Shown: in pieces, positions 20,680-37,301 of the stretch
Layout: the number at the start of each line of letters is the position of its first letter
Position numbering within the stretch: the stretch's first letter is position 1
From: Bacillota bacterium
GTDB taxonomy: Bacteria > Bacillota > Sulfobacillia > DUSP01 > DYEP01
DNA: 64,000 nt
Reading direction: 5' to 3'
Assembly (NCBI GenBank): GCA_040755615.1
Contig: JBFMAL010000003.1
Coordinates: 8,507 to 72,506 of the forward strand
Made by a program: the position numbers and the translations under genes
The notes under the pieces: model-generated
Told to the model about the DNA's origin: nothing
What the model saw: only the letters and a program-made list of their open reading frames with translations
Database searches by the model: none

Positions 20680-20726
20680 GGTTTCACGGACCCCTTTCGT
20701 TCATGCCGGCTTGGACCACTCACGCC

Positions 20727-23360: not shown

Positions 23361-23397
23361 CGGAGGAAAACGGCCTCCGTAAGCCTAACGTGCAGGA

Positions 23398-23587: not shown

Positions 23588-25327
23588 TTGTCACTGCTTA
23601 TGAAGATCCGAACTTTTATGAAGCTGGCTGACACTGCGGAAATCGGCATCCTGATACTCGGACGCGAGGGCTGCGTGTCCTGTGTCAACAACACCGCGGC
23701 TCAACTTCTGTGGCAGAAAAGTGCTCTGCCGGCTACGCAAAAGACCCTGCCTCCTGCGCTCCTCACCCTGTTTTGCCCGCCTCAGGGTAAGGGGAGAGCG
23801 ACCGTTGTCGCGCGCGGGCGGGTTGAGCTCCCGGGCGGGACGGTGTCGGCGCGGGGCGGAGTGACATTCAGCTCGGGTGTGATTCAGCACGCGTTTCTTT
23901 GCTTGGTGAGAGCTACCGATGATACAGCGAAAGATCAGATCAGCGCGCTGGAGGAACGGCTGAGTACGCTCGAGCAGATTCTCCAGGCCTCCTACGATGA
24001 AGTGTTGGCCACCGATGGCAACGGCGTTGTGTTTTTCGCGAATCACGCCTTTGAAACCCACTACGGCGTGCCCGTATCGGACGTGATCGGGCGTCACGTC
24101 AAGGACCTTGAAAAGGACGGGTTATGGGAGAATTCGGTCACTCCAATGGTGATCTCCAGCAAGCAGCGCATAACCATCCAGCAACGCACTGCGATCGGTA
24201 AGACCATGATCGTCACCGGTACGCCTGTACTTGATTCAAACGGGGAAGTGAAGATGGTGGTGTGCAACGCGCGGGACGTTACCGAGATGAACAAGCTGCA
24301 CTCCGAGCTTGAGAAAACCAAGGACCTGGTGAGGATCTACCAGAAGCAGCTGGCGCTCCAGAGCGAGGGGGAGTTCATCGTATCCCGCAGTGCAAAAATG
24401 CAAGCCGTGCTGGAAACAATGGAGAAGGTGGCCAGGACCGACGTGACCGTGCTGCTGCGCGGCGAATCAGGCGTGGGAAAAGACGTGATCGCCCGGGCAA
24501 TCCACAAAATGGGGTCAAGGCGGGACAAGCTGTTCCTGAAGGTAAGTTGCGCGTCTATCCCCGAGCACCTGATTGAGGCAGAGCTGTTCGGTTACAAGCC
24601 CGGAGCATTTACCGGCGCGCAGAAACAGGGTAAAGCAGGCCTTTTGGAGATCGCGCAAGGCGGAACCATATTCCTTGACGAGATAGGCGAACTGCCCATG
24701 GGGCTTCAGGCAAAGCTCTTGCAAGTACTTGACGAGAAGCAGTTCTTGAAGCTGGGCGATACGAAGCCGACTCGTGTCGATGTCCGGGTGATCACCGCAA
24801 CTAACAGGGATCTCGAAACCATGATTGACCAGGCACTGTTCCGCAGGGACCTCTACCACAGGCTCGGCACGGTCACCATCTTCATACCCCCTCTCAGGGA
24901 GAGACCCGAGGACGTGCTGGCGTTTCTCCATTACTACCTTGACTCCCTGAACAGGAAGTACCAGACACAAAAGCGGTTTGACCCAAAAGCCATTAACGCA
25001 CTTCTGTCTTACCGATGGCCCGGCAACGTGAGGGAGCTCGCCAACCTGCTCGAACAGCTCGTGGTCACGGTGGACGACGACGTTATTGGGCTTTGCAGCC
25101 TGCCCCCTGACATCGTGGTCCAGACCGAAAACGGTGCTTTGCCAGGCCTTCGCGGGGCAGGCTCCCTGGCGGAAGCGCTTGAGTCGGTGGAAGCTACCAT
25201 CATACGCGAGGCATACAGGCGTTACGGCAGCAGCTACCAGGTCGCGCGGGCGCTGGGCCTCAGCCAGTCGGCCGCTTATAGAAAGTACCAAAAGTACGTG
25301 GTAGGTGAAGGTACCGGCCAAAGGTAG
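23588..25327 (+). CDS. Sigma-54-dependent transcriptional activator (PAS sensor, AAA+ sigma-54 interaction domain, Fis-type HTH)
   Basis: GESGVGKDVIARAIH Walker A, GAFTGA motif (…KPGAFTGAQ…), and C-terminal HTH …YGSSYQVARALGLSQSAAYRKYQKY. Confidence 0.85.
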   Translation: MSLLMKIRTFMKLADTAEIGILILGREGCVSCVNNTAAQLLWQKSALPATQKTLPPALLTLFCPPQGKGRATVVARGRVELPGGTVSARGGVTFSSGVIQHAFLCLVRATDDTAKDQISALEERLSTLEQILQASYDEVLATDGNGVVFFANHAFETHYGVPVSDVIGRHVKDLEKDGLWENSVTPMVISSKQRITIQQRTAIGKTMIVTGTPVLDSNGEVKMVVCNARDVTEMNKLHSELEKTKDLVRIYQKQLALQSEGEFIVSRSAKMQAVLETMEKVARTDVTVLLRGESGVGKDVIARAIHKMGSRRDKLFLKVSCASIPEHLIEAELFGYKPGAFTGAQKQGKAGLLEIAQGGTIFLDEIGELPMGLQAKLLQVLDEKQFLKLGDTKPTRVDVRVITATNRDLETMIDQALFRRDLYHRLGTVTIFIPPLRERPEDVLAFLHYYLDSLNRKYQTQKRFDPKAINALLSYRWPGNVRELANLLEQLVVTVDDDVIGLCSLPPDIVVQTENGALPGLRGAGSLAEALESVEATIIREAYRRYGSSYQVARALGLSQSAAYRKYQKYVVGEGTGQR

Positions 25328-25383
25328 CCAGCACTCAGCAAATGCCTGCTGCAGCCGGAATCTGACTTAATCTCAGAAAAAGG

Positions 25384-25716
25384 GTGACCATTATGTCTGA
25401 GCGAGAGACCGTTCTGGTAACCGGGTATTCCAAGGCGCCTCAGGGCACTGTCATGCACGAGGTATATCGTTTGTGCGGCGTAGTGCTGGAGATCGATCCT
25501 GAAACCAACGTGATCGTCGATGCAGAACTGACATTCATCACTGACCTGGCGCAGCGCTTTTTCCACAAGCTGATCGTGGGTTACAACCTGTCTGACGGCA
25601 TCGACGGCCTGGTTGAAAGGATCAGAAAGCGCTATCTGGCCCCTTCGGACGAAGCGATGATAGCGGCCCTCAAGACCGCCATCCAACGCTTCATGGAAAC
25701 ATATGGCAGGAAATAA
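25384..25716 (+). CDS. Small conserved protein of unknown function (110 aa), first gene of the CoA-transferase operon
   Basis: Clean ORF with protein-like composition in the expected operon position. Possibly a DUF3870-type protein; that rests on memory only. Confidence 0.4.
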   Translation: MTIMSERETVLVTGYSKAPQGTVMHEVYRLCGVVLEIDPETNVIVDAELTFITDLAQRFFHKLIVGYNLSDGIDGLVERIRKRYLAPSDEAMIAALKTAIQRFMETYGRK

Positions 25717-25933
25717 CCGCTGCAGAATCTTGTTCAAGCAGAAGGAAAAATGGATAATTCGGAGAATATGTGTAGTTAACAAAACCCTATACAGTCCACG
25801 CAGGAGCAGTTTACCTGTCCTGGGCCGGTAACCCCGGAGCAGAAAAACAGGTGAAACCTAGCCCTCCTTCAACTCGCAAGAGTGTTGGAGCAGGTGCTAG
25901 GTTTTTGTGTTTTGATGAAGGAGGGAGCGATGT

Positions 25934-26845
25934 ATGAAGCAGGCCAAGGTTATGAACCTGGCCAGAGCAGTCAGCGAGCTGGTGCACGACGGAGACACAG
26001 TGTACCTGGCCGGGTTCACCCATCTCATTCCGTTCGCTGCAGGCCACGAAATCATCAGGCAACGAAAGCGTAACCTCACACTCTGCAGAGCCACTCCTGA
26101 CCTGATCTACGACCAGATGGTGGCAGCCGGATGCGCGAAGAAACTGGTGTTCAGTTGGGCAGGAAACCCGGGAGTGGGGCTTTTGCGCTCGATCCGCAAA
26201 GCGCTGGAACAAGGCGAGCTGGAGATCGAAGAGTACACGCATTACGGCATGACCGCACGGCTGATGGCGGGCGCCACAAACATGCCGTTTTACCCCCTCA
26301 GGTCAAATCTCGGATCAGACCTTCCCAGCGTGAATAAGGAGATAAAGTACGTGACCTGCCCCTACACCGGCAAGCGTATCAGCGTGGTACCCGCCCTGAA
26401 CCCCGACGTGTCCATCATCCACGTGCAGAGGGCGGACCGCCATGGCAACGCTCACATCTGGGGTATCGTGGGCGAACAGAAAGAGGCGGCCTTCGCGGCC
26501 TCCAGGGTGATCCTGACAGCAGAGGAGATCGTGCCGGATGAAGTCATCGCTTCCGACCCCAACCGCACGCTGATCCCCGGCATGATCGTGGACGCAGTGG
26601 TAGAAGTGCCGTGGTGCGCCCATCCTTCCTACGCCCAGGGGTATTACGACAGGGACAACCAGTTCTATATCGAGTACGAGGAGATCACCAAGGACCCCGG
26701 CGGGCTTTCAAGGTGGCTCGATACGTGGGTGTACGGTGTGGCTGACCGGCGAGAGTACATGGAGCGCCTGCCCGCAGCCCGCGTGCTCGCCCTGCAAGGC
26801 CGTAGGAGGTACAGCTATCCTGTAGACTACGGGTATTATGCGTGA
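25934..26845 (+). CDS. CoA-transferase subunit A (glutaconate / 3-oxoacid CoA-transferase family I)
   Basis: …VHDGDTVYLAGF…, …SWAGNPGVG…, family-I alpha-subunit layout. Confidence 0.75.
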   Translation: MKQAKVMNLARAVSELVHDGDTVYLAGFTHLIPFAAGHEIIRQRKRNLTLCRATPDLIYDQMVAAGCAKKLVFSWAGNPGVGLLRSIRKALEQGELEIEEYTHYGMTARLMAGATNMPFYPLRSNLGSDLPSVNKEIKYVTCPYTGKRISVVPALNPDVSIIHVQRADRHGNAHIWGIVGEQKEAAFAASRVILTAEEIVPDEVIASDPNRTLIPGMIVDAVVEVPWCAHPSYAQGYYDRDNQFYIEYEEITKDPGGLSRWLDTWVYGVADRREYMERLPAARVLALQGRRRYSYPVDYGYYA

Positions 26846-26857
26846 GGAGGAAGTACC

Positions 26858-27625
26858 GTGAAGTATACCAGTGCAGAAATGATGGTCGTGACCGCAGCGC
26901 GCATGTTGAAAAACGGTGACAGGGTGTTTGTCGGTATCGGCATGCCCAACCTCGCCGTAAACCTGGCCAGGAGGCTTCATGCGCCGGACATTCACATGAT
27001 CTTCGAAGCGGGAGTGATCGGTGCCAAGCCCTCACGGCTGCCTCTCTCCATCGGGGACCCGTGTCTTGTGACCGGTGCCGGCTCCGTATGCAGCATGTTC
27101 GACGTCTTCGCCTTTTATCTCCAGCGGGGCCTTATCGATATAGGGTTTCTTGGTGCGGCCCAGGTAGACAGATACGGAAACCTGAACAGCACGGTCATCG
27201 GGCCGTACGACCGGCCCAAGGCAAGACTTGCCGGAAGCGGCGGAGCGTGCGATATCGCGTGCCTTGCAAAGAAGGTCTTCGTGCTTATACCGCATGAGAA
27301 GCGCCGCCTGCCCGAAAAGGTGGACTTCATCACGAGCCCTGGTTTTCTCGGCGGAAGAGCAGAGCGGGAAGCGCTCGGCCTTGAAGGAGGGCCTGATACC
27401 GTCATCACCAACAAAGGGGTACTCCGGTATGACGAGACCGGAGAGATGATACTCACATCCATACATCCCGGCGTGACCGTCGGCGAGGTGCTAGCCAACA
27501 CCGGATGGGAACTGAAGGTATCCCGCACGCTTGAGATCACCCCCGACCCCAATGACGAAGAACTCAGAATCCTGAGGGAGGAGTTGGACCCAGCAGGGGT
27601 GTACCTGGGAGGCGCTATCGCATGA
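26858..27625 (+). CDS. CoA-transferase subunit B
   Basis: …VFVGIGMPN…, …LAGSGGACDIA…, conserved catalytic Glu region …FEAG…. 4-nt overlap with the next gene. Confidence 0.75.
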   Translation: MKYTSAEMMVVTAARMLKNGDRVFVGIGMPNLAVNLARRLHAPDIHMIFEAGVIGAKPSRLPLSIGDPCLVTGAGSVCSMFDVFAFYLQRGLIDIGFLGAAQVDRYGNLNSTVIGPYDRPKARLAGSGGACDIACLAKKVFVLIPHEKRRLPEKVDFITSPGFLGGRAEREALGLEGGPDTVITNKGVLRYDETGEMILTSIHPGVTVGEVLANTGWELKVSRTLEITPDPNDEELRILREELDPAGVYLGGAIA

Positions 27626-28791
27626 GGCGAGTGGCCATCGTGGGAGCAGGTCAGAGCAGGTTCGGCGATTTCCCCGGCATGAGCATTAAGGAACTGTTCG
27701 CAGAGGCATATGCCGAATGCGCCGCATCGGTGGACCGAGGCATCCCTCCTCGGGCGATAGATGCGGTATTCCTCGGTACGCTCGGCACGGGCGGATTCCA
27801 GCTCGGCCAGCCGGCCGCACTGCTGACGAGTTATGTCGGCCTTGCCGCTGTACCCTCCGTACGCATAGAGAACGCGTGCGCTTCAGGCGGGTTCGCGCTG
27901 CTGTCCGCGGTGCACGCTGTATGCGCGGGAGTCTACCGTACGGTGCTGGTGGCGGGAGTGGAGAAAATGAGAGACCTCTCGGCTGATCACGTCAGGTATT
28001 GGCTCGGAGTATCGGGTGACACAGAGTACGAGCGCCTCGCCGGACTCACGTTCGCAGGGATTTATGCCATGATGGCAAGGCACTACCTGGCCCGATACAA
28101 CGTCCCTAGAATCTACCTTTCTAAAGTGGCTGAAAAGAACCATGCGCACGGAGTGCTTAACAAGAAGGCCCACCTGAGACGTCAGATATCGTTGGAAGAA
28201 GCACAGAGCGCCCCCATGGTCGCGGACCCGCTGAACCTATTTGACTGCTCGCCTACAAGCGATGGTGCAGCGTGCGTGCTCATCACCTCGGAGGATCATG
28301 CAGACCGTTTCACTGACAGACCGGTATGGATCCTTGGCTACGGAGCCGGAGGCGACCACCTGGCACTTCACGACAGGCAGGACTGGTGCAGCCTTGCAGC
28401 CACCCGGGATGCGTCCAGGAGAGCATACGAAATGGCAGGTCTCGGGCCCTTAGACATCGACCTGGCTGAAGTGCACGACTGCTTTACCATAGCAGAGCTC
28501 CTGGCTTACGAAGACCTGGGCTTCTGCAACCGGGGTGAGGCACCTTCGCTGCTTGACAAAGGCGTTACCCGCATCGGCGGTTCGCTGCCGGTGAATCTCG
28601 GCGGCGGACTGAAGTCCAAAGGGCATCCCCTCGGGGCTACGGGTGTCGCCCAGGTCGCGGAGATGTTCTTCCAGCTCCGGGGACAGGCGGGCGAGCGCCA
28701 GGCATCTAAGCACCGCACTGGGCTCACCCACAATGTGGGCGGATCGGGCGGGACTGCGGTGGTCTTCATCCTGGGGAGGGATCTAGATTGA
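27622..28791 (+). CDS. Thiolase, SCP-x / non-specific lipid-transfer-protein type
   Basis: MRRVAIVGAGQSRFG…, active-site …ENACASGG…, …NLGGGLKSKGHPLGATG…, the typical SCP-x thiolase signature. Confidence 0.75.
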   Translation: MRRVAIVGAGQSRFGDFPGMSIKELFAEAYAECAASVDRGIPPRAIDAVFLGTLGTGGFQLGQPAALLTSYVGLAAVPSVRIENACASGGFALLSAVHAVCAGVYRTVLVAGVEKMRDLSADHVRYWLGVSGDTEYERLAGLTFAGIYAMMARHYLARYNVPRIYLSKVAEKNHAHGVLNKKAHLRRQISLEEAQSAPMVADPLNLFDCSPTSDGAACVLITSEDHADRFTDRPVWILGYGAGGDHLALHDRQDWCSLAATRDASRRAYEMAGLGPLDIDLAEVHDCFTIAELLAYEDLGFCNRGEAPSLLDKGVTRIGGSLPVNLGGGLKSKGHPLGATGVAQVAEMFFQLRGQAGERQASKHRTGLTHNVGGSGGTAVVFILGRDLD

Positions 28792-29795
28792 ATAGCGCTC
28801 ACATTACTGCTGCATGGGTATATACACCCGCGTACCGGATCCGGAAAGAGGAATACCTGAGCGCTCTCGGCGCGTTCTCCGCTCCCGGTATTACGGAGAA
28901 GTCGGTTGCGGGCCCGGACGAGGACCCGCTCACCATGGCAGTGGAGGCGGTCCGCGGTCTGCTGGAGGCATCGGGAACCGATCCATCGCGAATCCGCGCC
29001 ATGTGCCTTGCATCCACCACCTGGCCGTACCTCCACAAACACCCTGGCGGAGCGGTCGCGGAAGCGACCGGCCTTCCGAGCAATATCTTTACTACATGCC
29101 ACTTCGCCTCCGGAAGAGCGGGGACCGAGGCGCTGCTCACAGCGGTGCTGACCACACACTCGCTCGGCCCTAGCCTCGCTGTGATCTCCGATACCCCGGT
29201 CTTCTCCCCTGCCGATCCCCGCGAACACGGCCAAGGAGCGGCCGCGGTGGCCCTGCTTGTTGAACCGAGAGAGGGCGATGCCATCCTCTCTGTCAACGCC
29301 TGGGCAAGCACGACCAGAGAGAGCCTCGGTACCCTGTGCGCCGAAAGAGGCAACCCTTATCCATCAGAACAGCGCAACCAGGGGCATGCAGATCAGGAGC
29401 TCAGAGACACCATCGTCCCGTGCGTGAGGAACCTTTTTGAAAGCTCCGGCACCGACGAGAGCGCTTTTTTATCACTGTCGGTAAATGAGACGGATGCGAA
29501 AGAACCCGCCAGGTACAAAAACGCCCTGGGGTTTTCAAGTGCCAGGGCGCATACCGGCCCTGTCGTCTTCCTCGGACATACAGGCGCGTGCAGCGGACTT
29601 CTGTCGCTGCTTCACGCCGCCTCAGGTGCCGCTGCCGGCAGTCGGCTGCTGCTTGTTTCGTACGGGTACGGGGCTGCGTGTGACGCCATATCGTTCACAG
29701 TGAAAACTCCGTCTGCCGCGTGGGCCGGGCAGCTTCGCCCGTCCATCTACCTGACTTATACGGAATACCTGAGGTACCGCGGCCTCTTGCCCTAG
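28788..29795 (+). CDS. HMG-CoA-synthase-like thiolase-fold condensing-enzyme homologue
   Basis: 335 aa, initiation-condensing-enzyme fold features (…AVISDTPVFS…, …GAAAVALLV…). Sits in the thiolase / HMGCS / DUF35 gene order known from archaeal mevalonate pathways. Confidence 0.5.
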   Translation: MNSAHITAAWVYTPAYRIRKEEYLSALGAFSAPGITEKSVAGPDEDPLTMAVEAVRGLLEASGTDPSRIRAMCLASTTWPYLHKHPGGAVAEATGLPSNIFTTCHFASGRAGTEALLTAVLTTHSLGPSLAVISDTPVFSPADPREHGQGAAAVALLVEPREGDAILSVNAWASTTRESLGTLCAERGNPYPSEQRNQGHADQELRDTIVPCVRNLFESSGTDESAFLSLSVNETDAKEPARYKNALGFSSARAHTGPVVFLGHTGACSGLLSLLHAASGAAAGSRLLLVSYGYGAACDAISFTVKTPSAAWAGQLRPSIYLTYTEYLRYRGLLP

Positions 29796-29868
29796 AAAGG
29801 AGGGTATCACCCTGGGAGCCCACGTTTCCGTTCCGAATTACCAGAGAACTATCAGGCAGAGATACCGG

Positions 29869-30228
29869 ATGAAAGCATGCAGGTGCAGGGAGTGTGGCTT
29901 GGTCCTCTTCCCCCCGAAAGGCGCATGTCCCCGCTGCCAGAGTCAGGCGCTGGCCGAGTTCGCGCTATCAGGCTATGGCAAGGTCGGGACGTATACGGTA
30001 ATCGGACAGGGAGGAGCCCCGCCCGAGTTCGCGGAGCTCGCCCGCACCCTCGGCAGCTATGTAGTCGCCATCGTGAACCTGGATGAAGGGCCTTCAGTCT
30101 GCGGCCAGGTGGTCGACGTAAACCCGGGCGATGTCCGGGAAGGGATGCGGGTGCGGCAGGTATTCCGCAAGCTTTACGTACAGGAAGGCGTTACCCGGTA
30201 CGGCTATAAGTTCAGGCCCGTTGATTGA
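29869..30228 (+). CDS. DUF35 Zn-ribbon / OB-fold protein (thiolase-complex scaffold)
   Basis: CRECGLVLFPPKGACPRCQS zinc ribbon followed by an OB-fold. Confidence 0.75.
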   Translation: MKACRCRECGLVLFPPKGACPRCQSQALAEFALSGYGKVGTYTVIGQGGAPPEFAELARTLGSYVVAIVNLDEGPSVCGQVVDVNPGDVREGMRVRQVFRKLYVQEGVTRYGYKFRPVD

Positions 30229-30243
30229 CCGTAAAAAGGAGGA

Positions 30244-30639
30244 TTGTTGCCAGTGGCGCTTCAGACTGTCTCGGAAAAGTGTTCAGGGTGCAGGCTGTGC
30301 CAGCTGTTCTGTGCGTTGGTGCATTTCGGCGAGAACAACCCGGCGAAGGGCGCGCTCCGCATAACCGGCGTCTTCCCCGATCCCGGGCAGTACACGGTTA
30401 CGGTGTGCGACCAGTGCGGGCTGTGCGCTGAAGAATGCCCGGAAGAAGCCATCATCCTTAAACACAACAACTACGTAGTGCTGGAAGACAGGTGTACAAA
30501 GTGCGGCATATGCGTTGACGTATGTCCGACCCGGTCTATCTTCTTAAGAGACGATGAACCGGCGGCCATCAAGTGCGACGGCTGCCTTGAGTGTGTACCC
30601 TACTGCCCGCGCGAAGCGTTACTGCCCAAGGAGGTGTAA
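30244..30639 (+). CDS. 4Fe-4S ferredoxin (multi-cluster), TTG start
   Basis: Four CxxCxxC(x)nCP motifs (CSGCRLCQLFC, CDQCGLCAEECP, CTKCGICVDVCP, CDGCLECVPYCP). Ribosome-binding site AAAGGAGG 7 nt upstream. Confidence 0.75.
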   Translation: MLPVALQTVSEKCSGCRLCQLFCALVHFGENNPAKGALRITGVFPDPGQYTVTVCDQCGLCAEECPEEAIILKHNNYVVLEDRCTKCGICVDVCPTRSIFLRDDEPAAIKCDGCLECVPYCPREALLPKEV

Positions 30640-30642
30640 GCC

Positions 30643-32490
30643 ATGTCAGTTCTTTATGGATACGGGGGGAGCATCCTCGACATCGACCTATCGACTCAGA
30701 GAGTGTCGAAGTCCCGCCTGGAGCCTGATTTTGCCAGGAAATACATCGGAGGCCGCGGGTTCGTGGCAAGGCTGCTCTGGGACCTCATCCCGAAAGGAGC
30801 CGACCCGCTCGGGCCGGACAACGTGGCAGTGGTGGCCGCAGGTCCTCTGACCGGTGCGTTCCTGCCCTCCCCGAGCAAGGTGGAGTTCGGGGCGAAATCC
30901 CCAGCCACAGGAGGATACGGGGACAGCAACATGGGCGGCCACTTCGGGCCAGCGATGAAGCACGCGGGGTACGACGTGTTTATCATAAGGGGCGCCTCCG
31001 CCACTCCCGTTTATATCGCCATCGACGATGACACCGTGCTGATCAGGGATGCCTCCCACCTGTGGGGAAAGGGCTCGTATGCCACCGAGAAAGCGCTGAA
31101 AGAGGAACTGGGAGACGATTTCCAGATCGCGGTCATCGGGCCGGCCGGCGAAAACCTGGTAAAGATCGCCTGTATCACGCATGATTTCGGGCGCCAGGCC
31201 GGAAGGTGCGGCATCGGGGCGGTATGGGGCTCCAAGCGACTGAAGGCAGTTGCGGTGAGGGGAAGCCGGGGCTTCCCGGTGGCCGATCCGGCGGCCATGT
31301 TCAAAAAGGGCAAGGAGATGTTTGATATCATCTTCAAACTGCCCGGCTTTAAGGAGTGGACTCCGTACGGCACCGCGGAAATCACCGACTGGTGCAACGT
31401 ATCGGGGGTTTTCCCGACAAGGAACTTCTATACGGGCTATTTCCCGCACTACGAGCAGATCAACGGCAGAGCGCTCCGGCAGCCCATCGTCACGCTGGAC
31501 AAAGGTTGCTTCGGATGCCCGATTCCCTGCGGGAAGTACTCGCACGTGAACCTTCCCCAAGGCTCAGCCAGGGTAGAAGGCCCTGAATACGAGACGGTGG
31601 CGCTGTTTGGCGGAAACTGCGAGCTGTCGCGTATTGAGGAGATCGCCTACGCGAACTGGCTGTTCGACGACCTCGGCATGGATACCATCTCCGGCGGTAA
31701 CATCGTCGCCTTCGCCATCGAGTGTTTTGAGAAAGGCATCATCTCCCAGGGCGACCTGGGGGGAAGGGCGGTCAGCTTCGGGGATCTCGATTCGGTCATC
31801 CATATCGGAAAACTCATCGCAAACAGGGAACATATCGGTGATCTCCTGGCCGAAGGGGTGAAGGCCGCGAGCGCACGCCTCGGCAAGGGCTCGGAGCATT
31901 TTGCCATTCACGTGAAGGGGCTTGAGGTCAGCGGGTATGAGCCGCGGTATGCAGCCGCCATGCTCCTTGCCTACATGACCTGCGACGTCGGCGCCCACCA
32001 TAATAGAGCCTGGGCAATCACCTACGATATCTCCGTCGGGCGCGACAAGCTGGAGGGAAAGGCTGCAAAGGTAGTTGAACTTCAGCACCTCCGTCCCCTG
32101 CTCGATGCGCTGGGGATATGCCGATTCCCCTGGATCGAGGTGGGTTTTGAGCTCAGGCACTATGCGGAGATTTTCCCGATGATCACCGGAAGCAAAGAGA
32201 CCTGGGAGGAGCTGAACAGGTTGTCTGAGAGGATATGGAACCTGACACGGGCGTTCTGGGTCCGGGAGGTGCCGGGTTTTGGCCGCTCGTGGGACAGAGC
32301 TCCAGGCCGGTTTCTCACCGAGCCGGTCCCATCAGGCGCCGCTCATGGCAAGCTCCTGGGAGAGGAGATCACAGAGCGGTTGCTAGACGAGTACTACCGG
32401 CTGAGGGGCTGGGATGAGCAGGGTGTACCAAAGAGAGAGAAACTGTTGGAACTTGGCCTTTCCGACGTGGCTTCTGTACTTTACGGATGA
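30643..32490 (+). CDS. Aldehyde:ferredoxin oxidoreductase (tungsten-containing AOR family)
   Basis: N-terminal …GGRG…, AOR domain-1 features, 4Fe-4S Cys ligands (…CFGCPIPCGK…), 615 aa. Confidence 0.85.
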   Translation: MSVLYGYGGSILDIDLSTQRVSKSRLEPDFARKYIGGRGFVARLLWDLIPKGADPLGPDNVAVVAAGPLTGAFLPSPSKVEFGAKSPATGGYGDSNMGGHFGPAMKHAGYDVFIIRGASATPVYIAIDDDTVLIRDASHLWGKGSYATEKALKEELGDDFQIAVIGPAGENLVKIACITHDFGRQAGRCGIGAVWGSKRLKAVAVRGSRGFPVADPAAMFKKGKEMFDIIFKLPGFKEWTPYGTAEITDWCNVSGVFPTRNFYTGYFPHYEQINGRALRQPIVTLDKGCFGCPIPCGKYSHVNLPQGSARVEGPEYETVALFGGNCELSRIEEIAYANWLFDDLGMDTISGGNIVAFAIECFEKGIISQGDLGGRAVSFGDLDSVIHIGKLIANREHIGDLLAEGVKAASARLGKGSEHFAIHVKGLEVSGYEPRYAAAMLLAYMTCDVGAHHNRAWAITYDISVGRDKLEGKAAKVVELQHLRPLLDALGICRFPWIEVGFELRHYAEIFPMITGSKETWEELNRLSERIWNLTRAFWVREVPGFGRSWDRAPGRFLTEPVPSGAAHGKLLGEEITERLLDEYYRLRGWDEQGVPKREKLLELGLSDVASVLYG

Positions 32491-32503
32491 TGGAGGAGAT
32501 CTG

Positions 32504-33844
32504 ATGGGCCGGGACTTTGTGTTTTACAGAGATACGAAAAAGCAGATGCCGGTGATCGCCAGGGGTGAGGGCATCTACCTCTGGGACACGGAAGGTAAGA
32601 GATACATCGACGGGTGTTCAGGAGCGCTGGTGTCGTCCATCGGACACGGGCGGACCGAGATCTCTGACGCCATTCGGGAAGCGGCCAGCCAGGTGGCATT
32701 CGTCCACCTGTCGCAGTTCACCAACAAGTACTTGCAGCATCTGTCAGCCGAGATAGCGTCGATCACCCCGGGCGATCTCAACTGGTGCTACTTCGTGTCG
32801 GGCGGGTCTGAAGCGGCGGACACCGCCATTAAGATGGCGCGTCAGTATCACCTGGAGCGAGGTCAGCCCTCCCGTTACAAGGTCATCGGCAGGTGGCAGG
32901 CATTTCACGGCAATACCATAGGTGCGATGTCAGTGGGCGGGCACACCGCGCGGAGGAAGATGTACGCGCCGCTTCTCCTTGACTTCCCGCACGCCGTCCC
33001 CGGGTACTGCTACCGGTGCCCCTACGGCCGCGCCTACCCGGAATGCTCCCTGGCCTGCGCGGACGACGTGGAGCGCATCATTCTGCAGGAGGGCCCGGAA
33101 AACATCGCCGCTTTTATGTGTGAAATCGTGTCGGGAGCCTCCGCGCCGGGAGTGCATCCGCCTGCAGGCTACTACGAAAAGATACGCGAAGTGTGCGACG
33201 CCCACGGAGTGCTGTTCATCGCGGACGAGGTGATGACTGGATTCGGCCGTACGGGAGAGTACTTCGCGTGCCAGCACTATGACGCGATCCCCGATATCAT
33301 CATGTGCGCCAAGGGCATGAGCGCAGGCTATGCGCCCATAGGGGCCGTGCTCGCCTCGGAGCGGGTATACCAGGCGTTTCATCAGGGCTCGGGCAGGTTC
33401 GTTCACGGCTATACGTATGGCGGCAACCCGGTGTCGGCTGCCGCGTCGCTCCGGGTGATCACCTTCCTGAAAGAACATGGCGTCCTGGAGAACGTGAAGT
33501 CCACCGGCAGGTATCTAAAGGACCGGCTTTCCGCACTCGCCGGCGAACACCGGATCATCGGAGATGTGAGAGGTCTTGGTTTAATGCAAGGCATTGAACT
33601 GGTCGCGTGCAAGGAGACCAGGGAACCGTTTCCACAGCGACTCGAAGTCACAAACAGGCTGAAGGCAGTCGCGTTCCAGAAAGGTCTCCTCGTATACCCC
33701 GGAGCAGGCTGCGTAAACGGCCGGGATGGCGACGCGGTGTTGATCGCCCCGCCGCTTACCATCACCGTAAAGGAGGTGGATGAACTGCTTGACGTCTTTG
33801 AGGACGCGTTAAGTCTCGTTGAGTCAGAGCTTCTTAATTCCTGA
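32504..33844 (+). CDS. Class-III (omega) aminotransferase, aspartate-aminotransferase-family PLP enzyme
   Basis: …GSEAADTAIKMARQY…, …FIADEVMTGFGRTG…, PLP Lys context …AKGMSAGYAPIGA…. ATG 32504 behind GGAGG. Confidence 0.85.
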   Translation: MGRDFVFYRDTKKQMPVIARGEGIYLWDTEGKRYIDGCSGALVSSIGHGRTEISDAIREAASQVAFVHLSQFTNKYLQHLSAEIASITPGDLNWCYFVSGGSEAADTAIKMARQYHLERGQPSRYKVIGRWQAFHGNTIGAMSVGGHTARRKMYAPLLLDFPHAVPGYCYRCPYGRAYPECSLACADDVERIILQEGPENIAAFMCEIVSGASAPGVHPPAGYYEKIREVCDAHGVLFIADEVMTGFGRTGEYFACQHYDAIPDIIMCAKGMSAGYAPIGAVLASERVYQAFHQGSGRFVHGYTYGGNPVSAAASLRVITFLKEHGVLENVKSTGRYLKDRLSALAGEHRIIGDVRGLGLMQGIELVACKETREPFPQRLEVTNRLKAVAFQKGLLVYPGAGCVNGRDGDAVLIAPPLTITVKEVDELLDVFEDALSLVESELLNS

Positions 33845-33861
33845 CAGGGAGGTTAGCGAAA

Positions 33862-34071
33862 ATGACTGATCGCGGGTTCTTTCCTCTGGAGAAGAAGTAC
33901 GCTGCGGCCCTCATCACGTATATCGCTCTGGCGGTCGTATTCTTCCTTCCTTGGGCGCGCCAGCACAGCGTGTACGGCGTCTCGCTGTTCGGATGGCTCA
34001 TGGGTGCGTTTATGTTTGTAGCGCCTCTCATCAATTTGCTGCTGCTACGGTCTGATAACACGGGGAAGTAG
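33862..34071 (+). CDS. Small two-TM membrane protein, putative auxiliary subunit of the sodium:solute symporter (DUF4212-like)
   Basis: 69 aa, two hydrophobic helices, sits immediately upstream of and is co-oriented with the SSS transporter. Confidence 0.5.
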   Translation: MTDRGFFPLEKKYAAALITYIALAVVFFLPWARQHSVYGVSLFGWLMGAFMFVAPLINLLLLRSDNTGK

Positions 34072-34084
34072 GAGGTGTCTTGAA

Positions 34085-35515
34085 ATGAGAACGACCGAAC
34101 TCGCTGTGACACTCATTTATATCGTGGTGTGTATCGGTATCGGGCTGTGGGCAAGAAGCAAGGTGCGCGAGTCCAAGGACGATTACTGGGTAGCGGGCAG
34201 GAGAGTTGGCGTATTCACCAATACCTGGGCGATCATGGCTGCGCTGGCAAGCGGCGGGTCCATCCTCGGAGTAACAGGCCTCGGCTACAGGCTGGGCCTG
34301 CCTTATGTGTTCTCGATGTACGCAGGAGCGGTAGTAGGGTTCCCCATAGCAGCCATCCTGGTCGCCAAACCCCTCGTAAACTTGGGAAAATACACGATCA
34401 CTGACTTTTTGACGGAAAGATTCGATTCAAAACTCCTGAAGGTAGTCATACCGCTGATCATCCTTATCTCAATGGGCACCTACATCGTGGCCCAGATGAA
34501 AGCCGCAGGTGTGGCTGCGCAGTACCTCCTTGCCATCTCCTACAATCATGCGATCATTCTGACATCGATAGTGTTCATACTGTACGTTTCCATCGGAGGA
34601 ATGTGGGCTGTCACGGTTACCGACGTGCTGCAGGGTATCATCATGGTAGGTATGATGCTGCTGGTAGCCGTGATCTCTCTGGCACGCTTCGGCGGGCTGG
34701 GCGGCCTTCTGACGCAGGCAACCGCGGTAGCTCCGAACATCGGTCAACTGGTGAACATGCCGATGTCCTCATATGTGGGCGCCTTTGTGGTATGGGCAGC
34801 AGCGATTCCTGTCATCCCTCACATCGTGATGCGTATCTACACGTCCAAGGATGTGAAGTCGGCAAGGCTATCGCTGAATTACGCCATGCTCATCTACGCC
34901 TTCATGATATTCTTCGGGGTGGTTGGGATCTCGGCAGGAGGTCACCTCCTGGCGCCGGGACTGAAAGACGCGGACACGGTCTACCTGATCATGGTGGAGA
35001 ATTTCCTGCCGCGGGTGCTCGGCGGGCTGGCGCTGGCCGCGGTGATGGCAGCCGTGATGTCCACTACAGACGCACTGCTGCTGGCCTGTGCCAGCGCTGT
35101 TTCGCACGACCTCTATGAGCGGGTCATCAATCCCAAGGCTTCGGATAAGACCCTCGTAAACATCAGCCTTGTGACCACGTGGGTGATCGGGCTGCTTGCC
35201 ATGTTCTTCGCGTTCAACCCTCCGAAGCTTCTCACGATGCTGTACACGGCCGCTGTGGGTCTTATCGTGTCATCGCTCTTTGTACCGACTATCCTTGGCA
35301 TCTGGTGGAAAGGGACGAACACGCAGGGAGCAACTGCTGGCGTCCTGGTAGGCGCCGTATCATACCTCTGGCTGCTCTGGTTCACAAAGATGCCGGCGCT
35401 GTCCCACGTGCTTGTGTCGCTGCCCCTCTGCCTCGCTGTGACGGTCATCGTCAGCTTGCTGTCTCCGCCTCCCAGCGCGGCCACTCTTGAGAGAGTACAG
35501 CAGCTTCACAGGTAA
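34085..35515 (+). CDS. Sodium:solute symporter family (SSS) transporter
   Basis: …WVAGRRVGVFTNTWAIMAALASGGSILGVTG…, 13-TM topology typical of PutP/ActP-type SSS carriers. Confidence 0.85.
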   Translation: MRTTELAVTLIYIVVCIGIGLWARSKVRESKDDYWVAGRRVGVFTNTWAIMAALASGGSILGVTGLGYRLGLPYVFSMYAGAVVGFPIAAILVAKPLVNLGKYTITDFLTERFDSKLLKVVIPLIILISMGTYIVAQMKAAGVAAQYLLAISYNHAIILTSIVFILYVSIGGMWAVTVTDVLQGIIMVGMMLLVAVISLARFGGLGGLLTQATAVAPNIGQLVNMPMSSYVGAFVVWAAAIPVIPHIVMRIYTSKDVKSARLSLNYAMLIYAFMIFFGVVGISAGGHLLAPGLKDADTVYLIMVENFLPRVLGGLALAAVMAAVMSTTDALLLACASAVSHDLYERVINPKASDKTLVNISLVTTWVIGLLAMFFAFNPPKLLTMLYTAAVGLIVSSLFVPTILGIWWKGTNTQGATAGVLVGAVSYLWLLWFTKMPALSHVLVSLPLCLAVTVIVSLLSPPPSAATLERVQQLHR

Positions 35516-35525
35516 CCTCAGCTTT

Positions 35526-35557
35526 TTTGGGGACCCGCCTCTTCAGGGCGGGTCCTC
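35526..35557 (+). terminator. Stem-loop terminator after the symporter gene
   Basis: GGGACCCGCC-tcttcag-GGCGGGTCC followed by TCTCTCT; flanked 5' by a T6 run, so it could act bidirectionally. Confidence 0.45.
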
Positions 35558-36174
35558 TCTCTGAACAAAAGCCGGCAGCCGCTTCACACGCTCTGGTAAT
35601 ATACGCTGATAACTGAACTATTGAATGAAGGCATTAATTCGTTCAGCCAGGAAGACCCGTGAATCGAGCGAGTGTTATTGCTGAGAATTGACGTTCCGCA
35701 ATCCGTTTTTTAAGGGATTTACCCTTCTTTGTGTAACAATGAGCAGGCACTCATCCAGAATTCTGAACTCGACCCTGTCGTTTTCCTTAAGCAATGTCAT
35801 TTCAAGAATTGCTTTGGCAACCTAACAGCTTGGCTATTCCCCTGCTTTAATTGTCATATAGATACTAAAACCAAAACATACCAACCTGCTTTTCACGGCC
35901 GCTTTCCGGGTGGTCATGCTGGGGAAACAAAGCAGTTCTCTTGGGGGGCACTAGAGACAGGGCGGGGTCCGAGAGGCGATATACGTGAAGCCTGATTACC
36001 GGTCCCAACCTGGATATGCCTGCAAAGAAGCAGGTCCTATTCGCATCCGGCATGCCTGCCGGTTTCAAGTTGGAGCAAACCACCAAAGGTCTTCACAACA
36101 GACTACCGGCGGCAAACAGGTACACTCAGCAACCACGAAGGTACCGCCGGCAACCCCTTAGCCGCGGCCCAAGA

Positions 36175-36650
36175 CTTAAAACCATCGACCCAACCAGTGC
36201 CTTTCAAATGCCACCTAGGCCTAGGAGGCGGCTCTTGTCGGTTCCAGCAGAGTGAACAGCGGCGGATCCTGAAGATAGCGGATGGAGGAGTACCGGGCGT
36301 TCCCGTGGCCCGAAAACATCATCAGCGCACCCTCCCCCGTCTACGCAAAGCCCGGGCCTTTACCATGTATGTGGCGGCTGATGTTCCTCGCCACGACCTC
36401 CGCCTGGTCGTGGGCGAATATGCCGCCGTTTGCGTCCGTCCGTAAGACCCGTCGATTGTATCACCGATGGCGGTCTATGGAGCACAATGCCGACACGCAC
36501 AGAGCGAGTGGACAAGCCTTCCTGGTTTTCCTCAAACACCGTGAGGGCGCTTGGAGGTATTGTAGCTTCACCTTTAGATCCCGGCTCTGGAAACAGACCA
36601 GGATCTACTAGTTTAGAGGCAACCAAAGCTGTTACCATTCCATACCAGCT
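36175..36650 (-). pseudogene. Duplicated, degenerate 3' fragment of the SQR-like oxidoreductase gene
   Basis: About 80% nucleotide identity to 37300-37780 over roughly 300 bp, then decaying; a 14-aa tract (…PPSVIQSTGLTDGR… vs …APSVIQSTGLADAD…) is conserved. No start codon and the 5' two-thirds are missing. Confidence 0.6.
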
Positions 36651-37301
36651 ATGGTTGAAATAAGCCGATAGGTTTGTATCGGCATTTAAAGAGAAAACTC
36701 CTTTGGTAGCACCCATAAGCTTTCCTATCCTTCGTACAGCGCAACCCATGCAAAGTGCCCAAAGCCTAATCCTTCTATGGCAGCGTGGTCCTTTCCCAGT
36801 ATACCGAAGTACGTATGCTATTGGGATGCCATATGGCCCCGAGCGAAAAATCAGCTATTGTTCCGACAAGCAGACCAATCGGCTTCTCCCCATCTCTTTT
36901 TTGTCATGAAGAGGCCTGCGGCAATCTCCAAAGGGATAGTGATCTTTAAATGTCTACCTGAGATGCCCTGAAACTCCTGTAACAGACTACTCAATATTAT
37001 GTCGGCACTAGGAGTCTACTAATGGTAGAGTCCCTCTATCGTGACATCGATGTTCCCGGAGTGCTCGGTTCAGAAGGAGCTGCGAGGACCCTGAAAATGA
37101 CGTCCTGGACCCGGTGGACCACTGAAAGGTTCAGAAAAACATGGCGCTGCCAGGCTTCGTACTGGGTGCTGGCCGCCTATGGCCGTAAGCAGAGGCCTTG
37201 CGCGTGGCCCTGCTGTGTCACGCTGCCTTGTCGCGTTCGCCCAGCTGGCAGCGGAACCGCCAGAGCCGATGACTCAGGCGACAGGCAGGCGGGCCTTGCA
37301 G

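Follow-up and report, generated by a model that had tools for sequence, protein, structure and literature searches.

A block of eleven plus-strand genes in the 64-kb stretch of DNA analysed here (the window), which derives from a Symbiobacterium-like Bacillota MAG, belongs to a cluster that is conserved in several uncultured anaerobic Firmicutes. We tentatively read it as an operon that serves the breakdown of an amino-carboxylic acid taken up by the cell and whose end module would handle a beta-keto acid, a reading to which we give somewhat less than an even chance.

Gene content and layout

The block is present as earlier described apart from small start corrections, and all eleven co-directional genes were found on the plus strand with the identities proposed for them. 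Two gene pairs overlap by 4 nt (27622-27625 and 28788-28791), GGAGG-type ribosome-binding sites (RBSs) precede most genes, and intergenic gaps are 3-73 nt, the widest standing ahead of the DUF35 gene, apart from 217 nt between the DUF3870 and CoA-transferase genes. A hairpin (GGACCCGCC...GGCGGGTCC, 35531-35557) 3' of the symporter gene is probably the operon end. The overlaps and RBSs behind the single operon of the preliminary description are real, but because the 217-nt gap holds a terminator, that term needs to allow for an attenuator inside the operon. As claimed before, beta-oxidation genes are lacking: no ACAD, ECH or HBD homologue was found in the whole window or in related clusters.

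The first gene (25384..25716) encodes a DUF3870 protein of 110 aa (107 aa from an alternative ATG at 25393), a candidate regulator or accessory protein. The two subunits of a family-I CoA-transferase follow, an alpha subunit of GctA type (25934..26845; PF01144; PDB 1POI_A, 3.3e-46, with weaker matches to AibA and IpdA) and a beta subunit of GctB type (26858..27625; 1POI_B, 1.2e-58), in which 'MIFEAG' aligns with 'IIVESG' of GctB and retains the Glu that we take to be its catalytic Glu54. The SCP-x/archaeal-type thiolase (ACAT; 27622..28791; 6ESQ_A, 9e-84; NCBIfam PRK06064, 452 bits, above cut-off) carries the CAS (ENACASGG), HDxF (EVHDCF) and GHx (KGHPLG) motifs and is predicted to be catalytically intact. 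Its neighbour (28788..29795) resembles HMGS (6ESQ_I, 4e-24; PhlA, 2e-20), has no Pfam match and scores 151 bits, under the cut-off, with the NCBIfam archaeal HMGS model. Alignment with canonical HMGS showed that its E-C-H-N tetrad is replaced by T-S-N-H, a loss common to the homologues in loci L003, L004 and L042, and the L082 and L084 homologues have lost the Glu and Cys as well. A search of 5.8 billion proteins gave just two close homologues of this protein, which evolves much faster than its partners (identity 31-41% versus 64-69% for the thiolase); by its residues it is predicted to be a dead scaffold. The DUF35 protein (29869..30228; PF12172 and PF01796), a zinc ribbon plus OB fold with CxxC...CxxC in its translation, is the third subunit of the thiolase complex. 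The ACAT/HMGS-DUF35 complex of P. fluorescens, which cleaves acetoacetyl-CoA and performs no condensation, likewise combines intact thiolase motifs with a lost HMGS tetrad (PMC12960953), and the window trio matches this recently characterised bacterial degradative class. Thus no HMG-CoA step is expected; HMG-CoA synthesis by the trio was rejected because the whole tetrad is lost, and with it the HMG-CoA-like step and the leucine-derived substrates once suggested. Of the cleavage or condensation formerly ascribed to the trio, cleavage stands, since the class has been shown only to cleave acetoacetyl-CoA (PMC12960953).

A polyferredoxin with four CxxCxxCxxxC motifs in its translation (30244..30639; Fer4 families) is the probable electron acceptor of the tungsten-type aldehyde:ferredoxin oxidoreductase (AOR; 30643..32490; AFOR_N and AFOR_C), which its gene also adjoins in L003, L004 and Anaerolineales loci. 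The AOR has P. furiosus FOR as its nearest characterised relative (1B25, 2.7e-146, versus 1AOR, 2.6e-115), and the cluster cysteines align, as do the equivalents of FOR Glu308, Tyr416 and His437. The class III aminotransferase (AT; 446 aa; 32504..33844; PF00202; NCBIfam PRK07483, 506 bits, above cut-off) falls in the omega-transaminase/YodT-like subgroup and most likely starts at 32504, not at 32414 within the AOR gene, a start that matches the gene call in the 92%-identical locus L001. Its top PDB match is 3I4J (4e-102), ahead of omega-, putrescine and GABA:pyruvate transaminases, it falls outside the known aromatic beta-transaminases and the Kat (HemL-like) enzymes, and orthologues occur in L003 (56%), L082 (46%) and L087 (45%). 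In B. subtilis, yodT, the CoA-transferase genes yodS/yodR and kamA presumably form one operon. B. subtilis YodT shares 3I4J with the window enzyme as closest PDB relative, and its gene lies close to kamA, which encodes lysine 2,3-aminomutase (PMC6522883), a lead towards beta-lysine. The last two genes encode a 69-aa membrane protein (33862..34071), a small symporter partner that matches no family and is conserved beside the symporter in L001 (94%) and L003 (52%), and an SSF sodium:solute symporter (34085..35515; PF00474, 4e-65), which exceeds the cut-off of the NCBIfam sss superfamily model and stays below those of PanF, PutP and VC_2705. No paper on an AOR combined with a thiolase/HMGS-like/DUF35 trio was found in the literature, in agreement with the earlier statement that no such characterised pathway was known.

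Leader RNA and expression control

A structured leader RNA (25807..25914, plus strand), overlooked in the preliminary description, lies between the DUF3870 and CoA-transferase alpha genes. It consists of an outer stem P0 (25813-25818 paired with 25847-25852), an inner hairpin CCGG-TAACC-CCGG (25825-25837), an AAACC foot (25854-25858) and an intrinsic terminator (25854-25914; stem 25857-25901, U-run 25902-25914), which ends 3 nt ahead of the RBS at 25918-25925 of the CoA-transferase ATG at 25934. The fold has -52.3 kcal/mol (z = -4.47), and pairing of P0 is complete (100%), 4 of its 6 pairs showing compensatory changes across window/L001, L003/L100, L082 and L093. The leader is specific to DUF3870 loci; the leader model R2 scores 101 bits in the window and also matches leaders of Ato-type loci, and Rfam gave no match even at E<=1. 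It is a regulatory RNA not listed before, backed by covariation. In L100 one leader type stands before both the symporter operon, where a copy precedes the homologue of the 69-aa membrane protein, and the CoA-transferase operon.

The sigma-54 enhancer-binding protein (PAS, AAA+ and HTH; 23588..25327, plus strand; Pfam Sigma54_activat, 5e-66, PAS and HTH_50), whose top NCBIfam match is PrdR at 402 bits (cut-off 795), does adjoin the cluster, but the regulatory link implied before did not hold. A perfect sigma-54 promoter, TGGCAC-N5-TTGC, occurs just once, at 23344-23359 on the minus strand, and is directed at the divergent ABC operon; none of the -24/-12 type was found upstream of the cluster at 25000-26000 even with up to 2 mismatches, and the activator is upstream of the cluster in L001/L002 only. 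Hence it probably regulates the divergent minus-strand operon, and we infer that cluster expression probably depends on transcription passing the leader terminator ahead of the CoA-transferase gene rather than on sigma-54.

Recurrence of the gene set

At least three more Firmicutes lineages carry the gene set in rearranged form, at 31-76% identity. When synteny in related genomes was checked, as had been proposed, the set was found again in L001/L002, L003/L089/L090 and L004, which hold all of it in changed order (L004 has its AOR shifted upstream, and L003 has the symporter in inverted orientation), and in L082, arranged DUF3870-AT-CtA-CtB-thiolase trio-AT, where AOR and ALDH are both missing. 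Partial sets are present in L099, L103 and L102, the first two with the order AT-AOR-DUF3870. Elsewhere, functional analogues appear, namely NAD-aldehyde dehydrogenase for the AOR, classical thiolase for the trio and Ato-type for Gct-type CoA-transferase: L087 reads DUF3870-Ato-type CtAB-classical thiolase-AT-AT-amino-acid ABC-ALDH, L110 DUF3870-thiolase-AT-ALDH with the CoA-transferase gene 10 kb off, and L051 ALDH-thiolase-AT-CtAB. Because analogues replace these components, the linkage is functional, and the earlier view of the cluster as a functional unit gains from linkage kept across divergent lineages through rearrangement and non-orthologous replacement. The recurring core is AT, CoA-transferase and thiolase, the thiolase being retained in at least six independent arrangements, and an uptake system accompanies every variant (symporter, or ABC importers in L004, L082 and L087). 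With this recurrence the arrangement exceeds chance.

Proposed pathway and alternatives

The order and direction of the steps that we infer begin with Na+-coupled uptake by the SSF symporter and its 69-aa partner. Deamination by the omega-transaminase-type AT would be followed by oxidation of a (semi)aldehyde to the carboxylate by the FOR-clade AOR, with electrons passing to the co-encoded 4x[4Fe-4S] polyferredoxin, CoA activation by the glutaconate-type CoA-transferase, and direct thiolysis of a 3-oxoacyl-CoA to acetyl-CoA by the ACAT/pseudo-HMGS/DUF35 complex. The order amine, aldehyde, acid, CoA ester, already put forward in the preliminary description, fits, with an aldehyde-oxidising enzyme near 60 of the 80 loci with a Gct-type CoA-transferase (48 ALDH, 12 AOR). 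Because DUF3870 marks family-I CoA-transferase/thiolase modules in general, a connection not noticed before, the CoA-transferase substrate would be a beta-keto acid; two other DUF3870-CtAB-thiolase modules point to such an end module, that in L085 following genes for HMG-CoA-lyase-like enzymes, which would release acetoacetate, and that in L097 being accompanied by PcaC-family (CMD) genes. Moreover, since a dehydrogenase or hydratase is never linked, the 3-oxo group would have to arise when a beta-amino group is transaminated, and a substrate using every enzyme would be a diamino acid with beta- and omega-amino groups, for example beta-lysine. Judged by gene content, beta-lysine via 3-oxoadipyl-CoA would suit best, with 5-aminovalerate via glutaryl-CoA as main rival. 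3,6-Diaminohexanoate could pass through 3-aminoadipate, 3-oxoadipate and 3-oxoadipyl-CoA to succinyl-CoA and acetyl-CoA, or 6-amino-3-oxohexanoyl-CoA could be split into acetyl-CoA and GABA, the latter going via succinate semialdehyde to succinate. Against beta-lysine, two transaminations are needed and only one AT is encoded in the window, this AT belongs to neither the aromatic beta-transaminase nor the Kat type, most Gct-type loci link the CoA-transferase to ALDH without any thiolase, and the FOR and GctAB kinship fits glutarate semialdehyde and glutarate, hence 5-aminovalerate, at least as well. The DUF3870-type loci scanned showed no signature of lysine 2,3-aminomutase, none stood out among the annotated window genes, and the literature gave no paper on a route from beta-lysine to 3-oxoadipate.

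Near to what was first proposed, 5-aminovalerate (or GABA) could instead be taken up and turned by the AT into glutarate (or succinate) semialdehyde; the AOR would oxidise this to the dicarboxylate, from which the Gct-type transferase would make glutaryl-CoA. Acetoacetyl-CoA, the only compound left to the thiolase complex, would then be formed by unlinked glutaryl-CoA dehydrogenase/decarboxylase, crotonase and 3-hydroxybutyryl-CoA dehydrogenase. Stickland fermentation yields 5-aminovalerate abundantly in anaerobic habitats, and glutaconate CoA-transferase, nearest to the window enzyme, also accepts glutarate. GABA/5-aminovalerate-type ATs in L051 and L004 and the frequent ALDH or AOR near Gct-type loci are consistent with this route, as are P. 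furiosus FOR, with its lowest Km for glutaric dialdehyde, glutarate in its crystals and glutaric semialdehyde as proposed substrate (PMC12096430), and acetoacetyl-CoA cleavage as the sole activity shown for the thiolase class (PMC12960953). We nevertheless consider it unlikely: the indispensable ACAD, ECH and HBD are absent from every cluster variant and from the window, ACAD is near only 3 of the 80 Gct-type loci while the thiolase persists, L082 keeps AT, CtAB and thiolase without aldehyde oxidation, and DUF3870-CtAB-thiolase modules elsewhere follow enzymes that would give beta-keto acids.

That two unrelated modules merely adjoin, one for beta-ketoacid (acetoacetate) utilisation (DUF3870, CoA-transferase, trio) and one for amine/aldehyde detoxification (ferredoxin, AOR, AT, symporter), is quite improbable. 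DUF3870-CtAB-thiolase does occur alone in L085, L097 and L113, and Anaerolineales have Fd-AOR pairs beside CtAB without thiolase, but the halves stay linked in at least four lineages despite rearrangement, AT-AOR abuts DUF3870 in L099 and L103, the halves are swapped for analogues rather than lost (L087, L110, L051), symporter and CoA-transferase operons have a common leader type in L100, and the window shows gaps of 3-17 nt with one terminal hairpin. The 73-nt gap lies before DUF35, not between the halves, and lends no positive support. A condensing direction, in which the trio forms a C-C bond by HMG-CoA-like or Friedel-Crafts acyl transfer (PhlACB/MucABC), an aldehyde comes from reduction of an acid by the AOR and the AT turns it into an amine product, has hardly any probability. 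AORs can reduce acids with reduced ferredoxin, and PhlA/MucA have lost the tetrad as the window subunit has; Friedel-Crafts enzymes, however, have lost HDxF (PMC12960953), which the window thiolase keeps, a dead HMGS would preclude HMG-CoA synthesis, PKS, NRPS and other biosynthetic genes are lacking around the cluster, and the uptake systems argue for import. The catabolic reading that we prefer is that of an imported amino-carboxylic acid which, in these uncultured anaerobes, is most likely degraded to acetyl-CoA.

Gene content, regulation and conservation of the cluster

Translations and family assignments placed the eleven plus-strand genes of the cluster (25384–35515) where the preliminary description had put them: DUF3870 (25384–25716), family-I CoA-transferase alpha (25934–26845) and beta (26858–27625), an SCP-x/archaeal-type thiolase (27622–28791), an HMGS-fold protein without a Pfam match (28788–29795), DUF35 (29869–30228), a ferredoxin with four CxxCxxCxxxC motifs (30244–30639), AOR (30643–32490), a class III aminotransferase (446 aa, start most likely at 32504, in agreement with the near-identical locus L001), a 69-aa membrane protein (33862–34071) and an SSF symporter (34085–35515). 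The 4-nt overlaps and ribosome-binding sites claimed earlier are both present, with two such overlaps, gaps of 3–73 nt and sites of the GGAGG type, and a GC-rich hairpin lies 3′ of the symporter gene (35531–35557). All parts belong to known families, and as far as we searched the combination and its leader RNA are undescribed; the preliminary description knew of no characterised combination of this kind, and the literature within our reach on DUF3870, the yod operon, conversion of beta-lysine to 3-oxoadipate, AOR with 5-aminovalerate and antitermination in CoA-transferase operons contained none either, absence being weak evidence here since most subscription journals were outside the search.

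The gene at 23588–25327 encodes a sigma-54 enhancer-binding protein, and control of the cluster by sigma-54 had been implied. We rejected this because no promoter was found upstream: the region 25000–26000 contains no TGGCAC-N5-TTGC element with up to two mismatches, and no GG-N10-GC site scoring at least 8/11 precedes the cluster in the window or in L001, L003, L004 and L082, four of the compared loci from other genomes. The sole perfect −24/−12 element in the window, TGGCACAGTTGTTGCT (23344–23359, minus strand), stands before a divergent LivK-type ABC operon. The minus-strand genes at 10540–23187 encode this transporter and then two sets of xanthine-dehydrogenase-family molybdenum enzymes (12077–14434, 14838–15764, 16171–17082 and 17079–19520), and this operon, which perhaps serves an N-heterocycle, is probably the real target of the activator.

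On the 3′ side, a 1.7-kb stretch without credible ORFs (35560–37300) separates the symporter gene from that of an SQR-like flavoprotein and is missing from L001. It contains a copy of the 3′ end of the flavoprotein gene (direct repeat 36176–36432/37302–37558, 257 nt, 87% identity) and so has the look of what a partial duplication left behind. The flavoprotein itself (Pyr_redox_2; 37302–38492, minus strand) is kept beside the cluster in L001, and its best NCBIfam match is ‘type III sulfide:quinone reductase, selenoprotein subtype’, at 195 bits and below the cut-off.

To follow the linkage, CtB, the CoA-transferase beta subunit, was used to scan one genome per species, and each of the resulting 80 loci was searched with all window proteins. 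The closest locus to the window was that of a Symbiobacterium sp. MAG; L001 shows 83–97% identity, and L002 carries the full gene set at 82–97%. The full set is also present in L003 (Firmicutes UBA3576), at 76% identity for CtB, 68% for the thiolase, 63% for AOR, 56% for the aminotransferase and 36% for the HMGS-like protein, with the symporter inverted and upstream, and two marine-sediment contigs (L089, L090) have the same form. In the Clostridia MAG L004 the set is present with the ferredoxin–AOR pair shifted upstream, the aminotransferase replaced by a GABA-AT-type enzyme (34%) and the symporter by a LivK-type ABC importer; the LivK-type system upstream of the cluster in the window was rejected as orthologue of this importer, their identity being only 30%. 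An unexpected gene in L004, a bacterium without a known H4MPT pathway, is a methenyl-tetrahydromethanopterin cyclohydrolase homologue (5722–6738, between AOR and DUF3870; TIGR03120, 302 bits, above cut-off), whose substrate may be a different cyclic amidine.

Further variants came from homologues of the thiolase and of DUF3870. L082 reads DUF3870, aminotransferase, CtA, CtB, thiolase, HMGS-like, DUF35 and aminotransferase, followed by a peptide ABC system and C45 and M20 peptidases, with neither AOR nor ALDH in the cluster; L087 (Paenibacillaceae) reads DUF3870, acetoacetate-type (Ato-type) CtAB, classical thiolase, two aminotransferases, amino-acid ABC and ALDH. Shorter orders are DUF3870–thiolase–aminotransferase–ALDH (L110), aminotransferase–AOR–DUF3870 (L099, L103), thiolase trio–DUF3870 (L102) and ALDH, classical thiolase, aminotransferase, CtAB (L051). 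Two aminotransferase subfamilies alternate or co-occur among the variants. Functions thus stay linked while the proteins performing them are swapped, which is the signature of a pathway. Conserved linkage, the absence of which would have refuted the preliminary description, was found across these loci, and the cluster is a real catabolic unit that has been conserved among uncultured anaerobic Firmicutes.

The haloarchaeal locus L042 (Saliphagus) counts as no more than weak evidence of linkage, as riboflavin genes lie in between; it encodes a thiolase and an HMGS–DUF35 fusion without the catalytic tetrad (3679–6407), 3 kb from a glutaconate-type (Gct-type) CoA-transferase, so that pseudo-HMGS thiolase complexes exist in archaea too, beside canonical mevalonate enzymes. 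Separately, Anaerolineales loci (L033, L039–L041, L043–L046, L079) have an alpha/beta-hydrolase gene between Gct-type CtA and CtB, with a divergent ferredoxin–AOR pair (∼50% identity to the window AOR) and a P5C-dehydrogenase-like ALDH alongside; the link between AOR and Gct-type transferase hence reaches beyond Firmicutes.

Predicted chemistry of the cluster enzymes

The adjacent genes at 27622–30228 encode an SCP-x-type thiolase, an HMGS-fold protein and DUF35. The thiolase is nearest to archaeal acetoacetyl-CoA thiolase (6ESQ_A, 9e-84) and keeps the CxS (ENACASGG), HDxF (EVHDCF) and GHx (KGHPLG) motifs, and the HMGS-like protein is nearest to archaeal HMGS (4e-24) and also matches PhlA. On alignment to canonical HMGS, the tetrad E-C-H-N reads T-S-N-H in the window, and it is also lost in the homologues of L003, L004 and L042. 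Pseudo-HMGS evolves far faster than its thiolase partner (31–41% versus 64–69% identity), as expected for a scaffold.

Three states of such complexes have been distinguished (Nat Commun 2026, PMC12960953): archaeal complexes possess the tetrad, which is essential, and catalyse condensation; PhlACB and MucABC, in which tetrad and HDxF are both gone, carry out Friedel-Crafts acylation; and an ‘intermediate’ complex of P. fluorescens, with the tetrad lost and Cys, HDxF and GHx kept, only cleaves acetoacetyl-CoA. By motif state, the window trio would belong to this last, degradative class. The nearest solved relative of the window thiolase and HMGS-like protein, the M. thermolithotrophicus thiolase/HMG-CoA synthase/DUF35 complex (PDB 6ESQ/6ET9), comes from the same gene trio but condenses acetyl-CoA to HMG-CoA and needs its tetrad (E82, C114, H238, N270); since that tetrad is lost in the window, the trio is not a mevalonate-pathway enzyme. 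For the same reason a condensing complex was rejected despite the shared gene trio, and the HMG-CoA-like step and leucine-derived substrates put forward in the preliminary description fall away: there is no HMG-CoA step, and with it no reason for leucine. A Friedel-Crafts acyltransferase was rejected too, as HDCF is kept and the neighbours are catabolic and transport genes. The P. fluorescens complex shares the three families and the motif state and likewise lies outside any biosynthetic gene cluster, but its HMGS-like and DUF35 parts are fused where those of the window are separate genes, and its thiolysis of acetoacetyl-CoA without condensation was shown, that of the window complex being a prediction. 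Moreover, unlike that complex, the window trio shares an operon with CoA-transferase, AOR, aminotransferase and symporter, and its physiological 3-oxoacyl-CoA may therefore differ.

The CoA-transferase is of the glutaconate type (1POI_A 3e-46, 1POI_B 1e-58), with two subunits of ∼300 and ∼255 aa, and CtB keeps the catalytic Glu, that of MIFEAG aligning with that of IIVESG in GctB. None of the annotated window genes encodes the hydroxyglutarate-pathway enzymes 2-hydroxyglutaryl-CoA dehydratase or glutaconyl-CoA decarboxylase. The AOR is nearer to P. furiosus FOR (2.7e-146) than to AOR (2.6e-115); it has AFOR_N and AFOR_C domains, and the four [4Fe-4S] Cys and the Glu/Tyr/His equivalents near the metal align, so that domains and residues assign it to the FOR clade of the tungsten AOR family. 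The equivalents of FOR Arg481 and Arg492 are conserved as well, and we draw no conclusion on glutarate from them. A 2025 review (PMC12096430) reports that FOR has its lowest Km with glutaric dialdehyde and binds glutarate, from which glutaric semialdehyde was proposed as its substrate. P. furiosus FOR (PDB 1B25/1B4N) is the best structural relative, with C4–C6 (semi)aldehydes from amino-acid catabolism as proposed natural substrates; the window AOR differs in being bacterial and in being encoded together with a polyferredoxin as part of a defined catabolic operon, and its tungsten and its C4–C6 semialdehyde substrate are putative. The aminotransferase groups with omega-amino acid/amine:pyruvate transaminases and has 3I4J as its nearest structure, as does B. 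subtilis YodT (PMC6522883).

A candidate regulatory RNA downstream of DUF3870

In all 16 compiled loci with a same-strand gene downstream, a leader of 100–185 nt lies behind the DUF3870 stop codon, and its 3′ end is a strong intrinsic terminator abutting the ribosome-binding site of the next gene. Ato-type leaders have a hairpin of 8–9 bp with loop YAACC; the spacer between it and the AAACC foot of the terminator is exactly 11 nt long, except in two cases of 12 and 16 nt. Pairing in this hairpin is 93%, and 7/9 pairs show double compensatory changes; none of 500 shuffles reached its value, and slid controls gave 49–62%. In the leader of the window (25807–25914, plus strand; fold z = −4.47) and its group, an outer stem (25813–25818/25847–25852) encloses CCGG-TAACC-CCGG, and the AAACC foot and terminator come next; pairing in the outer stem is 100%, and 4/6 of its pairs show compensatory changes among four lineages. 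Further leaders lie in L003 (2853–2960), L082 (6635–6744), L087 (7976–8099) and L110 (10337–10465). L110 has an extra copy before a second CoA-transferase gene (20092–20131), L100 one before a homologue of the 69-aa symporter partner (692–802, minus strand), and in L114 the leader (3011–3049) precedes a gene that DUF3870 follows.

Run on 0.5 Mb of DUF3870-type loci, a covariance model of the Ato-type leaders matched 12 times at E<0.01, against no match in 1.24 Mb of loci that lack DUF3870; within the 64 kb of the window it scored highest, though weakly (18.4 bits, E 0.36), on the window leader, and the window-group model recovered Ato-type leaders too. In Rfam 15, the region 23000–38600 had no match at gathering score and 25700–25940 none at E≤1, and the L087 leader gave chance miRNA-like matches only. 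The leader hence looks like a candidate new attenuator or riboswitch family, confined to DUF3870 loci and supported by covariation. A second, ANTAR-like small hairpin overlapping the terminator foot was rejected, not being consistently present. Nor do we claim that the segment 5′ of the outer stem pairs with the 5′ arm of the terminator as an antiterminator; by eye, such pairing amounts to only ∼5 bp in the window.

In protein-dependent attenuation, as in hutP–hut and pyrR–pyr, the regulator gene lies inside the regulated operon. The present loci resemble these systems and terminator-type riboswitches in having a small conserved protein gene beside a leader hairpin and intrinsic terminator, in the position of the terminator directly before the ribosome-binding site of catabolic genes, and in the several leader copies of some loci. 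However, DUF3870 has neither sequence nor fold similarity to HutP or PyrR; its fold matches are generic only, and it is a candidate RNA binder. The effector may be either DUF3870, by a hutP/pyrR-like logic, or a ligand sensed by the RNA itself. Some loci have DUF3870 as their final gene, with a CMD-family gene before it and no leader 3′ of it; in L096, L097, L104–L106, L109 and L117 it is often last, directly behind a two-domain CMD-family (PcaC/AhpD) protein (e.g. L097, 9208–10342). The L097 operon, which reads CtA–CtB–thiolase–LivK ABC–Zn-ADH–cyclase–SDR–CMD–DUF3870, recalls the final part of a beta-ketoadipate-type pathway.

Pathway and candidate substrates

Within 10 kb, NAD-ALDH was found in 48 and AOR in 12 of the 80 Gct-type loci; a class III aminotransferase was present in 24/80 and an acyl-CoA dehydrogenase in only 3/80, and the whole 64-kb window has no homologue of ACAD, ECH or HBD. 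These observations support the order aldehyde, acid, CoA ester. The interpretation in the preliminary description was thus partly right: its order of amine, aldehyde, acid, CoA ester and C–C cleavage is supported, and the absence of beta-oxidation that it noted holds throughout the 64 kb.

AtoDA–AtoB, for acetoacetate, and PcaIJ–PcaF, for 3-oxoadipate, are end modules in which a beta-keto acid is activated by a two-subunit family-I CoA-transferase and then cleaved by a thiolase. The window shares this logic, its genes for a two-subunit family-I CoA-transferase standing directly before that of the thiolase, and DUF3870 loci with Ato-type enzymes, HMG-CoA-lyase-like or PcaC-family genes have such a module too. 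The window differs in having a glutaconate-type transferase and an SCP-x-type thiolase complex, and neither AtoC-type nor PcaR-type control is evident there. The thiolase is kept in at least six arrangements, all without beta-oxidation enzymes; L082 dispenses with aldehyde oxidation; and the DUF3870–CoA-transferase–thiolase module stands behind HMG-CoA-lyase-like genes in L085 and PcaC-family genes in L097, contexts that, judged by gene content, would deliver acetoacetate or 3-oxoadipate. These points favour a beta-ketoacid module at the end of the window pathway, a reading that we hold tentatively, with the case for it nearly as strong as that against. The CoA-transferase would then act either on a 3-oxo acid or on a 3-amino acid whose transamination takes place at the level of the CoA ester, and the thiolase would act directly on the product. 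As there is no dehydrogenase, the 3-oxo group must derive from a beta-amino group, and a terminal amine must be the origin of the aldehyde.

A beta,omega-diamino acid such as beta-lysine, which we infer as a candidate substrate, would use every enzyme and give acetyl-CoA with succinyl-CoA or succinate; the methanogen osmolyte N-epsilon-acetyl-beta-lysine is a possible source. The window encodes only one transaminase, which counts against this route, the DUF3870-type loci scanned showed no KamA motif, and we found no paper on a route from beta-lysine to 3-oxoadipate. The B. subtilis operon yodT–yodS–yodR–(yodQ–yodP–kamA) encodes a YodT-type aminotransferase, a two-subunit CoA-transferase, a lysine 2,3-aminomutase, an M20 deacylase and a GNAT protein; the window shares the adjacency of aminotransferase and CtAB, the aminotransferases being likened through their common relative 3I4J, and L082 carries M20 and GNAT genes as well. 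Variant lysine fermentation in uncultured anaerobes, with the 3-aminobutyryl-CoA aminotransferase Kat encoded beside acetoacetyl-CoA thiolase and AtoAD, a CoA-transferase of the same pathway, is a precedent for beta-transamination feeding a thiolase (PMC3149608). Kat is HemL-like, whereas the window aminotransferase is omega-transaminase/YodT-like, and the window lacks kamDE, kdd and kce and has AOR.

Omega-amino acid catabolism proceeds through GabT–GabD or DavT–DavD, and syntrophic degradation of cadaverine and 5-aminovalerate through glutarate and glutaryl-CoA. Here too a class III aminotransferase and semialdehyde oxidation are followed, in anaerobes, by CoA transfer to a dicarboxylate, so that the cluster might instead take 5-aminovalerate (or GABA) through glutarate semialdehyde and glutarate to glutaryl-CoA, with unlinked enzymes acting before the thiolase. 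This accords better with the nearest characterised relatives of AOR and CoA-transferase but less well with the gene content. The window differs from these pathways in that a ferredoxin-linked tungsten AOR takes the place of an NAD(P) dehydrogenase, neither glutaryl-CoA dehydrogenase nor beta-oxidation is encoded, and a thiolase complex is built in. We consider the glutaryl-CoA route, the chief alternative, rather unlikely. In its boldest form the beta-ketoacid reading would have beta-lysine, or a beta,omega-diamino acid like it, degraded anaerobically by a route not yet described. One promiscuous transaminase together with a FOR-type tungsten AOR would give 3-oxoadipate or 6-amino-3-oxohexanoate, from which CoA-transferase and the pseudo-HMGS thiolase complex would yield acetyl-CoA and succinyl-CoA or succinate, and DUF3870 would be the effector of a new attenuator RNA family and a new kind of RNA-binding antiterminator; taken jointly, these propositions are improbable.

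If our main reading holds, bacterial amino-acid catabolism would offer a defined physiological role for a tungsten FOR-type AOR, what FOR acts on in nature having been an open question since 1999, and about one thousand uncharacterised bacterial thiolase/pseudo-HMGS/DUF35 loci would gain a metabolic context. The orphan family DUF3870 would be tied to beta-ketoacid CoA-transferase/thiolase modules, and one more candidate cis-regulatory RNA, a hairpin with a terminator that is absent from Rfam, would be added. Since the host organisms are uncultured, the cluster would also suggest a substrate for enrichment attempts.
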